A stretch of DNA of 63,597 nt, filler included, from Caldilineae bacterium (GTDB taxonomy: Bacteria > Chloroflexota > Anaerolineae > DTLA01): assembly GCA_037446815.1 (NCBI GenBank). It is 3 parts of 3 records of this genome, joined end to end, with 100 filler letters (N's around TTAATTAATTAA, not from the genome) between each part and the next. Parts side by side here need not be neighbours in the genome. Positions count along the whole stretch, not along the records: positions 1 to 23,804 come from JBBIHX010000033.1; 2 more parts are not named here. One strand, given 5' to 3'. The position numbers and the translations under genes were made by a program. The stretch's first letter is position 1, and each line of letters starts with the position of its first letter. The notes beneath the pieces are model-generated. The model saw only the letters and a list, made by a program, of their open reading frames with translations. It was not told where the DNA came from and made no database searches. Positions 1 through 6,398 of the stretch are shown here, piece after piece.

Positions 1-483
1 CAGGGCGTGGTAGAAGGCGAAGGTGGCCAGCACAATCATGAGCGCAGGCAGGCTATAGGGGCGAACCTCCTGGGAGTAGTAGACGTGGGAAGGCAGGATG
101 GTCAGGATGGCGGCGGCGAGGAATCCGGTGGTTTTGTCAAACATGCGCTTGCCGAGGAAGTAGACGGCGGCCACGGTGAGCACGCCCCACAGTACGGCGG
201 GGAGGCGCAGGATGCCCTCGGAGCGGCCGATGTAGTAGTAGACGAAGTGGGTGACGAGGTAATCCAAGGGCGCAGAACCCGGGTAGGCCAAAGCGGCTTT
301 GGGTACCCTCCACCATGGCTCGCGGGCTGCTCGCACTTGCGACAGTTCGTCAATCCAGAAACTGTCCTGCTCCAGTTGGTAGAGGCGCAGGGCAAGGGCA
401 ACGAGCAGGATGGCGCCCAGCAGGATAACCTCGTGGTGCTTGCGCAGGCGTTCGCGAAGGGTCTCGTGCGTCTCGCTGCTCAT
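1..483 (-). CDS. GT-C/GT39 (PMT-like) membrane glycosyltransferase, 5' part; runs off the window
   Basis: Not in the ORF track. Manual translation from ATG 483: MSSETHETLRERLRKHHEVILLGAILLVALALRLYQLEQDSFWIDELSQV...LRLPAVLWGVLTV...HVYYSQEVRPYSL. It has the W-x-DE and YSQExRPY motifs; GGAGG RBS at 490-494. Confidence 0.85.
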   Translation of the reverse strand, partial: MSSETHETLRERLRKHHEVILLGAILLVALALRLYQLEQDSFWIDELSQVRAAREPWWRVPKAALAYPGSAPLDYLVTHFVYYYIGRSEGILRLPAVLWGVLTVAAVYFLGKRMFDKTTGFLAAAILTILPSHVYYSQEVRPYSLPALMIVLATFAFYHAL

Positions 484-528
484 GGAAGTCCTCCATAGCG
501 CAGAATCGGCATGGGCTGGCTGGGTGGG

Positions 529-557
529 AGTGTAACACCCCGGCCCCGAGTCGTCAA
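529..557 (-). promoter_or_regulatory. sigma70-type promoter of the GT39 gene
   Basis: TTGACG-N17-TACACT on the minus strand. Confidence 0.55.
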
Positions 558-572
558 ACCGCGCGGGCCGCG

Positions 573-885
573 GAGTCGGTTTCATCCTGTCACTATGTTT
601 GCACTTTTGTGTGTTGGCCGATTTTGCGCCCGCTTCGCTCACGGCAGAGATGTTCAGGGTTTCCTCTGCGCTCTCTCCGCGCCTCCGCGGTGCAGAATCA
701 ACCGTGAGCGCGAGTCGGTTCCGAAGTCTGTTGGCATCTGCCGTCATTCTGAGCGGCGGAGAGCGAAGAATCTCGCCCCTCACCCCAGCCCTCTCCCGAA
801 GGGCGAGGGCGTATCGCCTTCGGCTCAGCATGACAGAGTGGGGAGGCGGCGCGCGGGACAGGCCGACACAAGATGGAGCCGACTC
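573..885. mobile_element. composite MITE; core copy 712-885 carries REP-like cargo
   Basis: Ends GAGTCGGTTCCGAAGTCTGTTGG and CCGACACAAGATGGAGCCGACTC; internal GTCATTCTGAGCGG..GAAGAATCT and CCCTCACCCCAGCCCTCTCCC motifs; an extra end at 573. Confidence 0.7.
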
Positions 886-1103
886 GGCTGCGGAGGATCC
901 CGTGGCCCATACTTTGCAGCCAAGATGAACAGATTGTCATGCAAAGGGGTTTGCGTTTTCATCGTTTTTTCATCTTGGACTGCTATACTGGGCCCGAGGG
1001 GAGAAAAGGGCTGAGGGAGGCCTTTTCGCACACTGCACCGGAGAGCACGCGCCGCGCTGCCGCCCTCCGTACTGAATCCCCGCGAGCGGTTGTTGTTTGC
1101 GCA

Positions 1104-1120
1104 TTGGCACGAGGCTTGCA
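1104..1120 (+). promoter_or_regulatory. sigma54 (-24/-12) promoter
   Basis: TTGGCACGAGGCTTGCA matches the consensus YTGGCACG-N4-TTGCW, 57 nt upstream of ATG 1178. Confidence 0.75.
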
Positions 1121-1177
1121 TGGAGCGTGTTGCCACCGTGAACGCTCGGCCAGGCGCTGTGAGCGGAGGATGCGAAG

Positions 1178-1828
1178 ATGAGCGTTGAGTCGGTTGCTGT
1201 GGACACGGCTACCCTGGAGTCCAGCCTGAAGCAGGTAAAGGGCGTGTATGCATGTCGGGTGGTGATGGATGCGCCCAACGAGATCGGCGAGATTCATGTG
1301 GTGGGCGCGCCCGACCGCAAGCCCAAGCAAATTGTGCGCGATATTGAGTCGCTCCTGTTTGCCAGGTTTGGCCTGCGGGTGAACTACCGCAAGATTAGCC
1401 TGGCGCAGATGCAGGAGGAGAAGGCGTTTGCGGCGCTGGGGTCGCGGCCCCGACTCCTGGCGGCGGAATGCGCTGGCGAGGGCGACTCCTACACCGTGCG
1501 CGTGCGGCTTGCCGATAATGGCAACGTCTTTGAGGGGGCGGCGAGCCAGCCCAAGGATGACGGGAATGCGGGCCGCGCAGCGTGCCTGGCCGCGCTGGAT
1601 GCGCTCAACAAGATGGTCAACAGGAACGGGCTGTTCACTCTGGACGCGCTAGAGGTCATGCCGGTGGCGGGCCGCGAGGTGGTGATTGTGATGGTTACCT
1701 TCGCGTTCGCCGCGGGCGAGGAGCACCTCATCGGCACGAGTTTCTACCGCGGGGATATGGTGGAATCGGCCGTCCGGGCCACGCTGGACAGTGTCAACCG
1801 GCGGCTTTCGCTCATACGGTCGCTCTAG
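1178..1828 (+). CDS. conserved hypothetical cytoplasmic protein (216 aa), first gene of the peptide/HD-GYP/DUF5317 locus
   Basis: GGAGGA RBS, typical codon usage; motifs EIHVV..RKPKQIVRDIES..RKISLAQ and AVRATLDSVNRRL. Confidence 0.85.
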   Translation: MSVESVAVDTATLESSLKQVKGVYACRVVMDAPNEIGEIHVVGAPDRKPKQIVRDIESLLFARFGLRVNYRKISLAQMQEEKAFAALGSRPRLLAAECAGEGDSYTVRVRLADNGNVFEGAASQPKDDGNAGRAACLAALDALNKMVNRNGLFTLDALEVMPVAGREVVIVMVTFAFAAGEEHLIGTSFYRGDMVESAVRATLDSVNRRLSLIRSL

Positions 1829-1862
1829 GGGTCCCGGCGCCGAGACGCCGACCCGAGCGCAA

Positions 1863-2096
1863 CGGAAGAGGTGGGAGGCGGCATCGGGCTGAAGAAGCCT
1901 GAAGCGGAGCGAAGGGGAATCGGAAGAAACCTCAACAAACTTTCGGCCGAAAGGCTAGACTAGCGAAGGAGGAGATTCCCCATGAAGTGGAGAGTTCTGT
2001 ACGCGTTGATGATCGTCGCCAGCATCGTTGCCGCAGCCGGCGCCACCGCCAAGTGGCACTAGCATGAACGCATTGGCCGCCTCCCACCTCTATCCG
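1863..2096 (+). other. long-range inverted repeat enclosing the small ORF (structured RNA domain)
   Basis: 1863-1882 CGGAAGAGGTGGGAGGCGGC is complementary to 2076-2096 GCCGCCTCCCACCTCT(A)TCCG: 16 perfect bp, one bulge, 4 more bp. Confidence 0.75.
1982..2062 (+). CDS. 26-aa small hydrophobic peptide MKWRVLYALMIVASIVAAAGATAKWH (putative signalling-peptide precursor)
   Basis: Strong RBS AAGGAGGAG at 1966-1974; ATG 1982, TAG 2060-2062; basic N-region, hydrophobic core and polar W-containing tail; below the ORF-track size cutoff. Confidence 0.8.
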   Translation: MKWRVLYALMIVASIVAAAGATAKWH

Positions 2097-2105
2097 ACCA
2101 AATCT

Positions 2106-2436
2106 GTCATTGCGAGCGAAGCGATGGCGGTTGACCTCACCCCCTCGTTGGAGAGGCCCGGCGCGGTGTCGCCCGGGGCTGAAGCCTCGGGCTGAGGAGG
2201 GCGAAGGCGCGGGGGTGAGGTGTGGCTGGCTGTGGGAGATTCNNNNNNNNNNNNNNNNNNNNNNNNNNNNNNNNNNNNNNNNNNNNNNNNNNNNNNNNNN
2301 NNNNNNNNNNNNNNNNNNNNNNNNNNNNNNNNNNNNNNNNNNGCGCATGGGAAACCCGGCCCACTCCTGTCACCCTGAGCGGAGCGAAGGGTCTCGGGTC
2401 GGGAGATTCTTCGCGGCTTCGCAGATTAGAATGACA
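2106..2436. repeat. REP-like hairpin mosaic flanking a scaffold gap
   Basis: GTCATTGCGAGCGAAGCG, CCTCACCCCC...GGGGGTGAGG, and GTCACCCTGAGCGGAGCGAAGGGTCTC...GAGATTCTTCGCGGCTTCGC motifs that recur across the window. Confidence 0.7.
2243..2342. other. assembly gap (100 N, no linker)
   Basis: Run of N. Confidence 0.99.
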
Positions 2437-2452
2437 GGGGCGAGGGCAAGAG

Positions 2453-2481
2453 TTGCGGAGTTGGCAGGTTTTGGGTAAACT
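2453..2481 (+). promoter_or_regulatory. possible sigma70 promoter for the HD-GYP/DUF5317 pair
   Basis: TTGCGG-N17-TAAACT. Confidence 0.4.
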
Positions 2482-2585
2482 GCAGGCCATCCGCAAACGG
2501 GTTCTGAGGAGAACAGATCGGCAACTGGCGGTCTGTCGCCTGGGGTCGCGGGGCATCGGCCTGCCGGTCTGGGGAGGACGGTTAC

Positions 2586-3920
2586 GTGAGGGCACTGCCC
2601 GGACGCGCGCAAGTCTATATCATCGCACTCACCGTGGCGGCTTTGCTCGGCATCCTGGGCTGGCTGCCCACGCTCATGGCCCAGCCAACGCTGTGGCCTG
2701 TGGTGTTGCTGTTCGCGGGCCTCATCTGCCTGTCTGACATGTTCCCCATCGTGATGCCGTTCCCCGGCGACGCGGAGATGACCGTTTCGGGCGCGCTGCA
2801 GGCCGCGGTTGCTATCCTGTTCGGCCCGGCCGCGGCGGCCTGGGCGGCTTTTCTGGGCACGCTGGTGGCCGAAGCGATTTTGCGACGGGCTCCACACAAG
2901 GCGGCGTTCAACGTTTCCCAGATGGTGATCACCTTCGGGGCCATGGGCTCCCTGTACCGGGTCCTCTACGATGGGAACGTCAATCCCCTGAACTCCGTCC
3001 AGAACGCCATGGCTTTGGCCTTGCTGGCGCTTTTCTACTACGTTGTGAACACGGGGATGGTGGCGCTCATCATCGCCTTCGTGAACAACATTTCGGCCTC
3101 TTACGTCTGGAAGGTGAGTTTCCGCAACATCGCGTGGCACGAACTCACCATGGTTCCGCTGGGGGCGATGATCGTGATTCTGTGGCAGGCCAGCCCGTGG
3201 GCCATTGTCCTCATGCTGCTGCCGCTGGCCGTGGTGCGCACCTCGCTGCTGCAGTCCAGCGCGCTGCAACTGCAGACGATGGAGACGCTGATGGCGCTGG
3301 CGGATACCATTGACCAGCGCGACCCGACGACCTACGAGCACTCACAGCGCGTGGCGATGTTTGCCGAGATGATTGCCAAGGAGATGGGCCTGCCACAGGA
3401 CCAGGTGGAACTCATCTCCATGTCGGCGCGCCTGCACGATGTGGGCAAGATCGGCATGAGCAACGCGCTCCTCTACAAGCCGCAGCAGTTCTCGCTGGAA
3501 GAGTGGCACGAGTTCCGCCGCCATCCGACCATCGGCGCGAGCATGGTGGAGAATTTCCCGCTGTTCCGCAAGGGCCGCGACCTCATCTTGCACCACCACG
3601 AGCGGTGGGATGGCCAGGGCTATCCCGACCGCCTGGCGGGAGAGGAGATTCCGCTGGGGGCGCGCATCATCGCCGCCGCCGACGCGCTGGAGGCCATGAC
3701 GGCCGAACGGGTGTACCGCGACGCGCTGACCCTGGACGCGGCGATAGAGGAGTTTCGGCGGGAGCGGGGCCGCCAGTTTGACCCGAGGGTGGCCGATGCG
3801 CTCATCGCCGTGCTAGAGCGGTGCCGCCAGCAGGAGCCCGATTGGGAGCGCGCGACGTTCCAGAAGCGTATTCAGGCGTATCCGGTGGTGCAGCCCATGT
3901 CCAGCAGGGTGGGGAGTTGA
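2586..3920 (+). CDS. membrane-bound HD-GYP domain c-di-GMP phosphodiesterase
   Basis: About 220-aa multi-TM N-terminus; TYEHSQRVA, LHDVGKIG, HP, HHERWDGQGYP, RIIAAADALEAM and QFDP motifs; GTG start with GGAGGA RBS. Confidence 0.93.
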   Translation: MRALPGRAQVYIIALTVAALLGILGWLPTLMAQPTLWPVVLLFAGLICLSDMFPIVMPFPGDAEMTVSGALQAAVAILFGPAAAAWAAFLGTLVAEAILRRAPHKAAFNVSQMVITFGAMGSLYRVLYDGNVNPLNSVQNAMALALLALFYYVVNTGMVALIIAFVNNISASYVWKVSFRNIAWHELTMVPLGAMIVILWQASPWAIVLMLLPLAVVRTSLLQSSALQLQTMETLMALADTIDQRDPTTYEHSQRVAMFAEMIAKEMGLPQDQVELISMSARLHDVGKIGMSNALLYKPQQFSLEEWHEFRRHPTIGASMVENFPLFRKGRDLILHHHERWDGQGYPDRLAGEEIPLGARIIAAADALEAMTAERVYRDALTLDAAIEEFRRERGRQFDPRVADALIAVLERCRQQEPDWERATFQKRIQAYPVVQPMSSRVGS

Positions 3921-3921
3921 C

Positions 3922-4491
3922 GTGATCCTGCTCGTCTTCGCCCTGGTCGCGCTGCTCATTGCCCTGGCCCGTGGCGGCGACATCATGGCGCTGGCGCGGG
4001 TGCCGTTTCGCCTGGGGTGGCTTGCGCTCCTCGCCGTCGGCCTTCAGATTCTCATCTTCTCGCAGTGGTGGGCACGGTCGGCGCTGGCCGGTTGGACGCC
4101 GGCGCTGTACATCGTGTCGCTGGCGCTGCTTGTGGGGCTGGTGGCGGCCAACTGGCGGCTGCCCGGGTTGGCCGCGGTGGGGCTGGGGCTGGCGTGCAAC
4201 GCCGTCGCCATCGGCCTGAACGGCGGCAGGATGCCCGCGTCCGCCGATGCGCTGCGCACCGCCGGATTGGAATTCGTCATCCTCAAGGCGGGGACCCTCG
4301 GCTCCTCGGCCAATACGGTGCTGCTGGGGCCGCAGACCCGCGTCCCCTTCCTGTGCGATATCTTCGCGCTGCCCTCATGGTTCCCCATGGCCACGGTCTT
4401 CTCCATCGGCGATGTGCTCATCGCGCTGGGCGCGGCGTGGTTCTTCTTGGCCGTGGTTCGCCCCAAGGGCACGACCGGCGGCCGCGGATAG
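3922..4491 (+). CDS. DUF5317 family membrane protein (signal peptidase II-like motifs)
   Basis: Hydrophobic; GLACNAVAIGLNGGRMP, FLCDIF and VFSIGDVLIALG motifs; starts 1 nt after the HD-GYP stop. Confidence 0.85.
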   Translation: MILLVFALVALLIALARGGDIMALARVPFRLGWLALLAVGLQILIFSQWWARSALAGWTPALYIVSLALLVGLVAANWRLPGLAAVGLGLACNAVAIGLNGGRMPASADALRTAGLEFVILKAGTLGSSANTVLLGPQTRVPFLCDIFALPSWFPMATVFSIGDVLIALGAAWFFLAVVRPKGTTGGRG

Positions 4492-4500
4492 GGCGGGCCC

Positions 4501-4963
4501 CCGCGAAGAATCTCGCAAACCGAGACCCTTCGCTTCGCTCGGGGTGACAGGATCGGGCTGCCTTCCCGCAAGGCCCTCACCCTAACCCTCTCCCGGCGGG
4601 CGAGGGAACTGGGGAGAGTGCGCCTACGGTTCACCAACACAAGATGAACCGACTCCTACCCGCGGGGGGACTCGGTTCCAAAGTCTGTTGGTAACCGCCA
4701 TTGCGAGGGCGCGGGCGGAGGCCCCTCACCCCAGCCCTCTCCCAGCGGGCGAGGGAGCGACGCCCTCACCCCAACCCCATTCACGCGGATTCGCGTTCAT
4801 TCGCGGCCATGGAACTGTCATTCTGAGCGGCGAAGCCGCGAAGAATCTCGCCCCTCACCCCAGCCCTCTCCCAGAGGGCGAGGGCGTATCGCCTTCGGCT
4901 CACCATGACAATGGAATAGAAAGGCCGCGCGCCAGACAGACCAACACAAGACGGAACCGAATC
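4501..4963. mobile_element. MITE/REP mosaic (right end at 4655; complete expanded copy 4669-4963)
   Basis: GACTCGGTTCCAAAGTCTGTTGG ... CCAACACAAGACGGAACCGAATC ends, with multiple CCCTCACCCCAGCCCTCTCCC units. Confidence 0.75.
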
Positions 4964-4977
4964 GCCCCTGGCCCCGC

Positions 4978-5006
4978 TTGACGTTTCCCCTTGCGCGGCG
5001 TAAGAT
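4978..5006 (+). promoter_or_regulatory. sigma70 promoter of rarA
   Basis: TTGACG-N17-TAAGAT. Confidence 0.6.
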
Positions 5007-5036
5007 GAAGCCAAGACTCGGAGGAGCAGCCATCTC

Positions 5037-6398
5037 ATGGCCAGGGACGACCTGTTCGCCCATGCCCGCGCGGCACAAATTCGCAAGGAGGCCCCCCTCG
5101 CCGCCCGCATGCGCCCGCGCACGCTGGATGAGTTCGTGGGCCAAGAGCATATCGTCGGCGAGGGGCGGCTGCTTCGCCGCGCCATCCAGGCCGACCAGTT
5201 GACATCGCTCATCTTCTGGGGACCGCCCGGCACCGGCAAGACCACCCTCGCCATGATCATCGCCAACACCACCAAGTCGCACTTTGCCGCCATCAGCGCC
5301 GTCATGGCCGGCGTGGCCGACATCCGCCGCCTGATTGACGAGGCCAAGGAGCGGCGCAACCTCTACGGCCAGCGCACCATCGTCCTGGTGGACGAAATCC
5401 ACCGCTTCAACAAGGCCCAGCAGGACGCGCTCCTGCCCCACGTGGAGGACGGCACCATCATCCTCATCGGCGCGACGACCGAGAACCCCTACTTTGAGGT
5501 CATCTCGGCGTTGGTGTCGCGCTCGCAGGTGTTCCAGTTGCGCCCGCTCACCGAAGAGGACGTGCTGGTCGTCCTGCGCCGGGCACTCACGGACAAGGAG
5601 CGCGGCTACGGCAACTGGAAGGTGCGCGTGGACGAAGAGGCCATCCAGCACATCGCCCACATTGCAGGCGGCGACGCCCGCCGCGCGCTCAACGCCCTGG
5701 AACTGGCCGTTACCACGACCCCAGCCGACAAGCAGGGATGGGTGCACGTTACCCTCCAGGTGGCCGAGGATTCCATCCAGCGCCGCGCCATCCTGTACGA
5801 CCGAGACGGCGACGCCCACTATGACACCATCTCCGCGTTCATCAAGAGCCTGCGTGGCTCCGACCCCGACGCGGCCCTGTACTGGATGGCGAAGATGATT
5901 TACGCAGGCGAAGACCCGCGGTTCATCGTGCGGCGGATGATTATCTTCGCGTCCGAGGATGTGGGGCTGGCCGACCCGCAGGCATTGGTGGTGGCAACGG
6001 CAGCGGCCCAGGCGCTGGAATGGGTGGGCCTGCCCGAGGCGCAGTACGCCCTGGCCGAGGCCGCCATCTACCTGGCCACCGCCCCCAAGAGCAACTCCAC
6101 AGGCGGGTACTGGAAGGCCCTGGCCGACGTGGAGCGGGAGGGCAAGGTAGAGGTGCCCAATCACCTGAAGGACGCCACCCGCGACGCCGAGGCGCTAGGC
6201 CACGGCGAGGGATACAAGTACCCGCACGCCTTTGACCGCCACTGGGTGGAGCAGCAATACCTCCCCGACGCCCTCAAGGGCCGACGCTACTACGAGCCCG
6301 GCGCGCTGGGGTACGAGAAGCGCATCAAGGAGTGGCTGGAGTGGATGCGGGGGCAGGGCGCCAGCACGGCAGGGGAGGAAAACCGCGAGGGCGAATGA
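5037..6398 (+). CDS. rarA: replication-associated recombination protein A (MgsA/RarA AAA+ ATPase)
   Basis: [18 protein letters not shown]alker [36 protein letters not shown]. Confidence 0.97.

Follow-up and report, generated by a model that had tools for sequence, protein, structure and literature searches.

Does an open reading frame (ORF) of 26 codons in the genome of a Caldilineae bacterium encode a functional peptide, and on what would such a peptide act? The ORF lies at positions 1982..2062 on the plus strand of the DNA analyzed here, a stretch of 63,597 nucleotides (nt) including filler from assembly GCA_037446815.1, which we call the window. The window consists of three parts joined by filler of 100 N, and its positions 1 to 23,804 correspond to JBBIHX010000033.1. 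An earlier reading of this DNA, hereafter the original prediction, described the ORF as unannotated and essentially a signal peptide, with a regulator of the nearby HD-GYP protein or a type I toxin as alternatives. Our analysis indicates that the ORF is almost certainly a real gene, and we favor, with moderate confidence, a role of its product as an uncleaved single-helix membrane microprotein that would partner a MASE9 sensor.

A conserved micropeptide gene

The sequence contains the elements that the original prediction had listed. A Shine-Dalgarno (SD)-like purine-rich run (1966-1974) is followed by a 7-nt spacer (1975-1981), the start codon ATG (1982-1984) and the 26 residues quoted, and the frame closes with TAG (2060-2062). 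The peptide has basic residues at positions 2 and 4, is uncharged from residue 5 to 23 and ends in K24-W25-H26. Such a frame alone could be due to chance, because 88 ORFs of at least 20 amino acids (aa) overlap the first 6 kb of the window.

Related loci were collected using the 216-aa protein encoded just upstream (1178..1828) as bait. The bait matched 325 stretches, 218 of which encode a relative; the best 80 of these were kept, and locus counts below refer to them unless noted. The micropeptide was searched for with a simple pattern and then with a profile made from the ORFs thus obtained (E-values 2e-15 to 0.015). In 71 of the 80 loci, it follows the gene of the 216-aa homologue immediately and in the same orientation. 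By record title, these belong to Anaerolineae and other Chloroflexota, many Bacillota, Coriobacteriia, Sumerlaeota and one Armatimonadota. Among the nine loci without it, two end at or soon after the 216-aa gene, and the other seven also lack MASE9, HD-GYP and DUF5317 in the flank, where other neighbors such as radical-SAM genes are present.

Lengths, tails and start sites were compared among 71 members (70 loci and the window). With start sites as chosen, 67 members are 23-35 aa long. The stop position is conserved, leaving a tail of 4-6 residues behind the conserved core in 67 members and of 3-7 residues in all 71, and most members have an SD-like site at a spacing of 4-13 nt. According to the original prediction, a failure of related genomes to conserve the frame or the G-A-x-x-x-W tail would count against it; both are kept, the tail in the form G-A-x-x-[K/R]-W. 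Because frame, architecture and stop position are conserved downstream of a homologous neighbor gene, the ORF goes beyond what chance would give.

The nucleotide differences indicate purifying selection on the peptide. In the three closest loci (L001-L003), the peptide is 100% identical to that of the window and the neighbor protein is 86-89% identical. The peptide genes of the window and L003 differ by five synonymous and no non-synonymous changes, and those of L001 and L003 by seven and none. L030 and L067 differ by 19 synonymous and five non-synonymous changes, corresponding to proportions of synonymous (pS) and non-synonymous (pN) differences of 0.88 and 0.08. In nearly all of the 60 pairs compared, pN was well under pS.

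The micropeptide was single-copy in three whole genomes. The sole other profile match in these genomes was the signal peptide of a 324-aa lipoprotein (E 5e-4). A profile search of 1.84 billion representative proteins (cut-off E 1e-3) gave 36 significant relatives, all of 24-83 aa, and the match ended within three residues of the C-terminus in 34 of them. Fused or longer forms, such as an extra N-terminal helix of the sensor described below, were absent from these 36 matches, and we rejected the candidate in which the micropeptide is joined to the sensor as an additional N-terminal helix, as no long protein was among them. One 47-aa relative (P0150) is an apparent tandem duplication with two hydrophobic cores, each ending in an L-A-G-G box.

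No named family of Pfam-A or NCBIfam was matched above its curated cut-off across 67 members; the weak matches were signal peptide-like, the best at E 0.007-0.26. The window peptide itself had no NCBIfam match, and in Pfam only DUF2749 at 15.5 bits against a cut-off of 25.5. The exact 26-aa sequence is recorded as an unnamed JGI/IMG gene call on seven contigs, and nine relatives looked up were likewise unnamed. The term "unannotated" thus holds for the name but not for the gene call. We regard this micropeptide family as previously unnamed, and its conservation points to a translated product of 24-35 residues. The comparisons establish a real, single-copy gene under selection.

Pairing with a MASE9 sensor gene

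In 66 of the 71 loci, the 1.6 kb after the peptide gene contain the start of a match to MASE9 or HD-GYP; the other five loci end within 740 nt. Wherever enough downstream DNA is available (66 loci), the next gene encodes a MASE9-type membrane sensor, so that the peptide gene is invariably paired with one MASE9 sensor subfamily. The gap between the peptide gene and the sensor gene or next long ORF has a median of 58 nt (range 4-341). Since it always lies just upstream of a MASE9 sensor gene, the micropeptide is likely a partner or a signal for the sensor.

Gene context was mapped by Pfam scans of eight loci and tblastn across all loci. The common order is the 216-aa gene, the peptide gene, a MASE9-HD-GYP gene (sometimes with a second HD-GYP gene after it) and DUF5317. 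In nine Chloroflexaceae-type loci (L008, L018, L023, L047, L049, L053, L060, L061, L065), the order is DUF5317, the 216-aa gene, the peptide gene and a gene in which MASE9 is fused to a HisKA/HATPase histidine kinase. Because the peptide gene also precedes these fusions, the peptide appears to follow the MASE9 domain and not the output domain. Among the readings offered in the original prediction, a membrane-embedded regulator of the HD-GYP protein is the best supported, given that the peptide gene directly precedes the sensor gene in all 66 evaluable loci, be the output domain HD-GYP or a histidine kinase.

Genomes were also sampled independently of the 216-aa marker, 14 from the class of genome G001 and 41 drawn evenly from its phylum, with concordant results. 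In the 14 genomes, the peptide and the 216-aa protein were present in the same 11, and DUF5317 in 12. Among the 41 genomes, DUF5317 was present in 16, and 15 of those 16 have the peptide; MASE9 was detected in 17 and the 216-aa family in 21. Two further peptide matches were obtained in this sample, one at a contig end and one probably false, inside a 336-aa frame. One genome (G019; L115 2497-2598, minus strand) carries the peptide, MASE9 and DUF5317 genes in a normal cluster but lacks a 216-aa gene beside them. Another (G052; L114 881-943) has a degenerate 20-codon peptide with Arg in the box, upstream of a MASE9-HD-GYP gene. The control genomes of Thermotoga maritima and Thermus thermophilus match the Pfam models of MASE9 and DUF5317.

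In several Bacillota, Sumerlaeota and Coriobacteriia loci, a gene for the ribosome hibernation factor S30AE lies just upstream of the 216-aa gene (L028 3242-3754, L063 2056-2598, L068 3202-3741). Upstream of the S30AE/216-aa region, Rfam cspA thermoregulator matches below the gathering score were seen at L063 1591-1938 and L030 2865-3177.

Architecture and favored role of the micropeptide

Position-wise conservation was scored on 93 distinct family cores anchored on a nearly invariant Ala (position 0, A21 in the window). The layout comprises a basic N-terminal region, one hydrophobic core, a lipobox-like L-A-G-G-A and a short tail. Ala occupies position 0 in 89 of the 93 cores; position -1 is Gly in 81, -2 is Gly, Ala or Ser in 89, and -3 is Ala in 78. 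Positions -4, -6, -9 and -12 are mostly Leu, and -5 is Val, Leu or Ile. Small residues occur at -7 in 97% and at -10 in 81% of cores, and their frequency is at least 0.81 at each of positions 0, -1, -2, -3, -7 and -10. Those at 0, -3, -7 and -10 share one face of the helix. Lys or Arg is found at -14 or -17. The tail consists of any residue, an aromatic residue (F/W/Y, 54/93), Lys or Arg (68/93) and then Trp (61/92). The uncharged run before the invariant Ala measures 14 residues in 38 of the 71 members and 17 in 30.

From this architecture and the gene order, we favor the reading in which the micropeptide is an uncleaved single-helix membrane microprotein partnering the MASE9 sensor, and hold it with moderate confidence. 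We prefer it because the whole helix is conserved with a one-sided stripe of small residues, because the peptide tracks MASE9 across output domains, and because MASE9 has independently been argued to bind its ligand inside the membrane (Galperin and Chou, bioRxiv 10.1101/2021.11.05.467447).

The peptide gene is the first gene of a transcription unit running into the MASE9 sensor gene and often DUF5317. In the proposed mechanism, insertion of the peptide into the membrane would be post-translational and would place the basic N-terminus on the inner side and the short K-W tail at the outer interface. The peptide would not be cleaved, and its small-residue face (0, -3, -7, -10) would pack on the transmembrane helices of MASE9. 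The packed peptide would determine or transmit the sensor's state and thereby affect hydrolysis of cyclic di-GMP (c-di-GMP) or kinase output, acting as MgrB does on PhoQ or KdpF on KdpABC. The membrane location, the topology and the helix-helix packing are all predicted from sequence.

Several observations weigh against this reading. An uncharged run of 14 or 17 residues has the usual length of a signal peptide core and would make a short membrane span, and residues -1 and -3 in signal peptidase numbering fit the signal peptidase I rule, so that cleavage is possible. DUF5317, which is detectable in 47 of the 71 loci, was not found in the fetched flank of the other 24; its role in the module would therefore be optional or exerted in trans. 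Longer MASE9 paralogues (about 560-610 aa) elsewhere in the same genomes lack a peptide gene, and the peptide is therefore not a general requirement of MASE9. In the window, the peptide and sensor genes are parted by repeat DNA and a scaffold gap; since these intervene, their adjacency rests on the relatives. A complex prediction for the 31-aa L006 homologue and residues 1-230 of its MASE9 protein (score 0.07, mark 0.32) weighs neither way.

A structured leader that pairs with the start region

The DNA in front of the peptide gene is itself conserved. Among the window and L001-L003, identity is 92-94% over the 118 nt that precede the ATG, 83-86% in the upstream gene (63-72% at third codon positions) and only 62-64% in the 120 nt after the peptide stop. 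Leaders of other Chloroflexota open with an evident -35/-10 promoter and have a GAAGCGRAG block in common; because of this promoter, the peptide gene heads its own transcription unit. In the window, a consensus scan of 1000-4600 gave no promoter-like site on either strand, and terminator-like sites there were no commoner than in shuffled sequences.

The leaders are rich in a short motif, AGCGR. It occurs 223 times in the 9,738 nt of the 71 leaders (22.9 per kb) against 2.4 per kb elsewhere in the loci, and shuffled leaders contain 33.4 +/- 5.6 copies. A typical leader has 3-5 copies, and 59 of the 71 have at least three. The window leader has a tandem pair at 1903-1912 and a further copy at 1962-1966, both on the plus strand. 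The motif alone is not specific in the window genome: the window contains 15 copies of the tandem AGCGRAGCGR where 1.2 are expected, and at least two of the other copies, at 2378-2387 and 4530-4539, lie inside arms of dispersed repeats.

Immediately behind the tandem copy lies a segment that pairs with the SD sequence, the spacer and the start region. The mean energy of this duplex was -12.9 kcal/mol against -8.1 in shuffles, and 39 of 51 leaders gave a better value than the shuffle mean; for the window, the energies were -16.5 and -5.7 kcal/mol. The window helix joins 1914-1921 with 1974-1981 and covers the spacer between the SD sequence and the start codon. We built a covariance model (R1) from 12 leaders of one Bacillota subgroup. 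In 80 sources, R1 gave 43 matches at E up to 1, of which 41 abut a peptide start, including the structured leader of the window (1886..1987, plus strand, E 0.045). Three whole genomes contained one strong match. In the alignment fitted to R1, which leans towards the model for that reason, 86% of cells pair against 39-56% with slid partners. Cells in which both sides change numbered 114 against 18-32, and none of 500 shuffles reached the observed values.

The structure appeared only after motif anchoring and covariance model building. The window leader folded alone was not better than shuffles (z -0.87), and RNAalifold found no base pairs in 20 leaders aligned with plain MAFFT. Rfam gave no match at E up to 1 in window positions 1-6000, and none at E up to 5 at the leader of seven related loci. 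Because the structured AGCGR leader pairs with the ribosome-binding site and start region, production of the peptide itself is regulated, and the pairing establishes regulated translation initiation as a property of this gene. The leader occurs before the peptide gene in several phyla, in one copy per genome. It may be a new cis-regulatory RNA that either works as a riboswitch or binds a protein.

Neighboring genes and spacer in the window

The gene usually found directly upstream of the micropeptide gene (1178..1828, plus strand) encodes a 216-aa cytoplasmic protein of a large unnamed family. The window protein matched no Pfam or NCBIfam family above cut-off (LeuA_dimer, PF08502, at 10.9 bits), and all its named relatives are "hypothetical protein". 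Its L014 homologue passes Pfam LeuA_dimer, at 26.3 bits against a cut-off of 24.9. An AlphaFold2 model (mean pLDDT 88.3) has a small N-terminal alpha-beta-beta-alpha-beta domain, which carries conserved basic residues, followed by two beta-beta-beta-alpha units. Foldseek matched the C-terminal half to LeuA (3hps, probability 1.0) and to a citramalate synthase regulatory domain (3f6g_A; likewise probability 1.0, TMt 0.59, rmsd 4.3 over 131 columns). Searches of PDB sequences with the 216-aa and DUF5317 profiles gave nothing meaningful. By its modeled fold, the 216-aa protein may be a ligand-binding regulator, and we speculate that it reads the AGCGR leader. L115, the sole locus without an adjacent 216-aa gene, also has no AGCGR-rich leader, an anecdotal point as this is a single case.

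The spacer between the peptide and sensor genes (2063..2585) measures 147-161 nt in the three closest relatives and is enlarged in the window by dispersed repeat copies and a scaffold gap of 100 N (2243-2342). Inverted repeats pair 2350-2416 with 4501-4567 and 2403-2437 with 4815-4849. The repeats, whose ends are palindromic and whose core is GAGCGRAGCGAAGG-like, form a dispersed family with copies at 2063-2585 and also at 630-840, 4500-4910 and elsewhere in the window. Its core resembles the tandem motif of the leader.

The sensor gene (2586..3920, plus strand) encodes a membrane c-di-GMP phosphodiesterase with a MASE9-like sensor and HD-GYP. At the sequence level, the protein has both features of HD-GYP c-di-GMP phosphodiesterases, namely the HD_5/HD domain (HD_5 131.4 bits and HD 86.2 bits, both above cut-off) and the GYP motif (H-H-E-x-x-D-G-x-G-Y-P), which is present in its translation and in the family alignment consensus. 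The N-terminal multi-pass region matches MASE9 (PF20972) at 23.5 bits, just under the cut-off of 24.3. Syntenic relatives exceed it (L028 33.1, L039 39.9 and L006 26.5 bits).

The next gene (3922..4491, plus strand) encodes a DUF5317 membrane protein with five predicted helices (PF17248, 114.5 bits against a cut-off of 25). A structure model shows the five helices with a pLDDT of 92.7. The family alignment has twelve invariant columns, including N93, N100, M104-P105, D146 and S161-x-G163-D164, and the polar invariants N93, N100, D146, S161 and D164 are found close to where helices 4 and 5 are predicted to end on the outer side. By the positive-inside rule, these residues would be placed at the outer membrane interface, which would also be the place of the peptide's box, given an inside N-terminus.

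The two invariant Asp motifs of DUF5317, near the start of its last helix, recall the catalytic ones of signal peptidase II (LspA), and the two families were compared. In hhalign, both invariant Asp motifs align, with a probability of 35% and P 4e-4, over about 50 residues only. With an LspA profile of 3 sequences the probability was 4%, and with one of 32 sequences it reached 35%. In three genomes, Peptidase_A8 (PF01252) matched canonical LspA only and not DUF5317. Foldseek against PDB and VIA-align 2 (pdb_via_wide) gave generic helical matches for the DUF5317 model; LspA was not listed, which leaves the relationship possible. ESM Atlas gave no usable match. We treat the DUF5317-LspA relationship, suggested by profile alignment, as a lead and not as a result.

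Alternative explanations

The strongest rival reading, which we consider possible but clearly less probable than the membrane partner, is that the micropeptide is a precursor. It would be cut at the lipobox-like site, by signal peptidase I after the invariant Ala or by a dedicated membrane protease, with DUF5317 as the candidate, and the product would be sensed by MASE9. The ligand would be the 4-6-residue C-terminal tail or a released hydrophobic fragment, in a logic analogous to that of Phr and SHP peptides or enterococcal pheromones. The layout expected of a signal peptidase I substrate is present: a basic n-region, a hydrophobic core, and, in signal peptidase numbering, Ala at -1 in 89 of 93 cores and Gly, Ala or Ser at -3 in 89. 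The window peptide also has the two A-x-A triplets pointed out in the original prediction, A19-G20-A21 and A21-T22-A23. The short tail fits a released product.

The motif further agrees with the lipobox apart from its Cys. The lipobox consensus is [LVI][ASTVI][GAS]C, with Cys invariant at +1. In the family, Leu, Ala and Gly occupy the first three places in 78, 78 and 60 of 93 cores, but the next residue is Gly in 81 or Ala in 9, and the canonical Cys occurs in none. The window peptide reads A-A-G-A; the lipobox position with Ala in place of Cys, noted earlier for this peptide, is thus real, and across the family the place of Cys is taken by Gly or Ala. No mature passenger domain follows the site in any of the 71 members. 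The likeness of L-A-G-G-A to a lipobox explains the weak matches to LPAM_1 (5 of 67 members) and the LptM signal (7 of 67), as well as the cross-match to the 324-aa lipoprotein. Because the layout holds family-wide and this only other genome match is a true lipoprotein signal peptide, a cleavable signal peptide is still a possible reading. Two further points in its favor come from DUF5317: the peptide is found in 15 of the 16 sampled genomes bearing it, and its Asp motifs align with those of LspA.

Other features fit a precursor less well. Conservation at -2, -4, -7 and -10 goes beyond the needs of a signal peptidase. The description as essentially a signal peptide is accordingly right as to layout, which the whole family shares, but falls short in that positions -1, -2 and -3 are nearly fixed and small residues line one face, which exceeds what signal peptidase I requires. 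Pheromone precursors usually diverge fast, whereas the micropeptide is conserved across phyla. DUF5317 is missing from the neighborhood in the 24 of 71 loci mentioned above, and its similarity to LspA is short and escapes the Peptidase_A8 model. A 26-residue product would also leave the ribosome before co-translational Sec targeting is possible. If the peptide is cleaved, the positions conserved in the family suggest A21 as the last residue before the cut, and the tail would then count five residues.

A more elaborate form of this idea, which we consider rather unlikely, is a self-contained peptide-signaling circuit of a new type. DUF5317, as an aspartyl membrane peptidase distantly like LspA, would cut its dedicated substrate, the Cys-less micropeptide, at the pseudo-lipobox, the fragment would be the MASE9 ligand, and the AGCGR leader would gate synthesis. 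The fragment, in the membrane or extracellular, would set c-di-GMP turnover, and the leader would possibly be read by the LeuA-like 216-aa protein.

It is improbable that the ORF is a cis-acting upstream ORF whose translation, through coupling, stalling at the K-W codons or opening of structure, sets expression of the MASE9 gene while the peptide has no function. The position 4-341 nt (median 58) upstream of the sensor gene and behind a start-sequestering leader would suit such a role, as would the conserved C-terminal residues and stop position. However, purifying selection acts on the entire hydrophobic helix and keeps residue classes position by position in several phyla, which a pure upstream ORF would not require. 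Neither a conserved structure nor an overlap joins the peptide stop to the sensor start, and the DNA after the stop is the poorly conserved 120-nt segment described above.

A type I toxin, that is, a membrane-damaging hydrophobic peptide checked by antisense RNA, is very improbable. Size and hydrophobicity would fit, as would the sequestered ribosome-binding site, which is a feature of many type I toxin mRNAs. Type I toxin loci are typically patchy and multi-copy; the micropeptide has one copy per genome at a fixed place in a signaling gene cluster and is vertically conserved across phyla. The promoter scan described above gave no promoter-like site on either strand, and no Rfam antitoxin or small RNA match was obtained. 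The data lend this alternative of the original prediction no support.

An untranslated chance ORF within a conserved non-coding leader can practically be dismissed: the flanking leader is conserved too, and conservation at the RNA level may account for a share of the identity among the closest relatives, but distant relatives at 72-76% DNA identity and pS up to 0.88 keep the frame, length, residue classes and stop, SD-like sites are kept, and gene callers of several sources predict the gene independently.

Relation to known systems and significance

The membrane-partner reading was compared with known small proteins. Like MgrB with PhoQ, the micropeptide is a very small single-helix membrane peptide proposed to bind the membrane or periplasmic part of a sensor and to tune its output, and its own production is regulated. 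It has no sequence relationship to MgrB, and its candidate partner is a multi-pass MASE9 protein driving HD-GYP or a kinase. Its gene lies directly upstream of the sensor gene in a cluster kept across several phyla, and binding is putative here. KdpF (29 aa) and CydX (37 aa) are small stabilizing subunits encoded with their complex. The micropeptide resembles them in size, in having one hydrophobic helix, in the location of its gene beside that of the membrane partner and in being often omitted from annotation. Its partner, however, is a signaling protein and not a transporter or oxidase, and its lipobox-like motif and aromatic-basic tail are absent from those subunits.

With lipoprotein signal peptides and SHP or Phr precursors, the micropeptide shares a basic N-terminus, a hydrophobic core and an L-A-G-type box, as reflected in the profile cross-match, and its length is like that of SHP precursors. 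Unlike lipoprotein signal peptides, it has no Cys at +1 (Gly in 81 of 93 cores) and no mature domain, and because of the missing Cys the lipoprotein pathway cannot act on it normally. In contrast to SHP and Phr peptides, it is conserved across phyla and not species-specific, and its candidate receptor is a membrane sensor instead of a cytoplasmic protein of the Rgg or Rap type. TRAP is a repeat-binding attenuation protein that recognizes GAG/UAG repeats. The leader, with a covarying helix over the SD sequence and start codon and 3-5 AGCGR repeats, is similar to riboswitch platforms and TRAP targets and would fit a ligand or an oligomeric RNA-binding protein, but differs in having no Rfam match.

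The gene downstream of the micropeptide has the architecture of MASE9-HD-GYP proteins of the T. maritima TM1467 type, defined by Galperin and Chou (bioRxiv 10.1101/2021.11.05.467447). In the passages covered, they mention neither a small ORF beside such genes nor a 216-aa protein, a link to DUF5317 or a leader RNA. We found no description of the micropeptide in the literature on MASE9, HD-GYP and TM1467, a search that did not cover supplementary Figure S5 of the MASE9 paper, and no paper on DUF5317. Small single-pass sensor partners are already known; this micropeptide family, its link to MASE9 and its leader are absent from Pfam, NCBIfam, Rfam and the literature found.

The module is common, with relatives of the 216-aa protein in 218 stretches of a species-level genome collection and DUF5317 in 16 of the 41 sampled genomes, and its carriers include cultured strains, by record title Thermosediminibacter litoriperuensis DSM 16647, Thermovorax subterraneus DSM 21563 and Phosphitispora sp. 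TUW77. It shows how a conserved 26-codon gene escapes naming, and it also reveals a structured leader without an Rfam family. MASE-type membrane domains are among the commonest inputs of bacterial c-di-GMP enzymes and kinases, and their signals are largely unknown. A peptide of 24-35 residues is encoded immediately before one MASE9 subfamily in all evaluable loci, whatever the output domain, which offers a hypothesis for such an input that is both concrete and cheap, namely that the peptide may be a partner or a ligand of the sensor.

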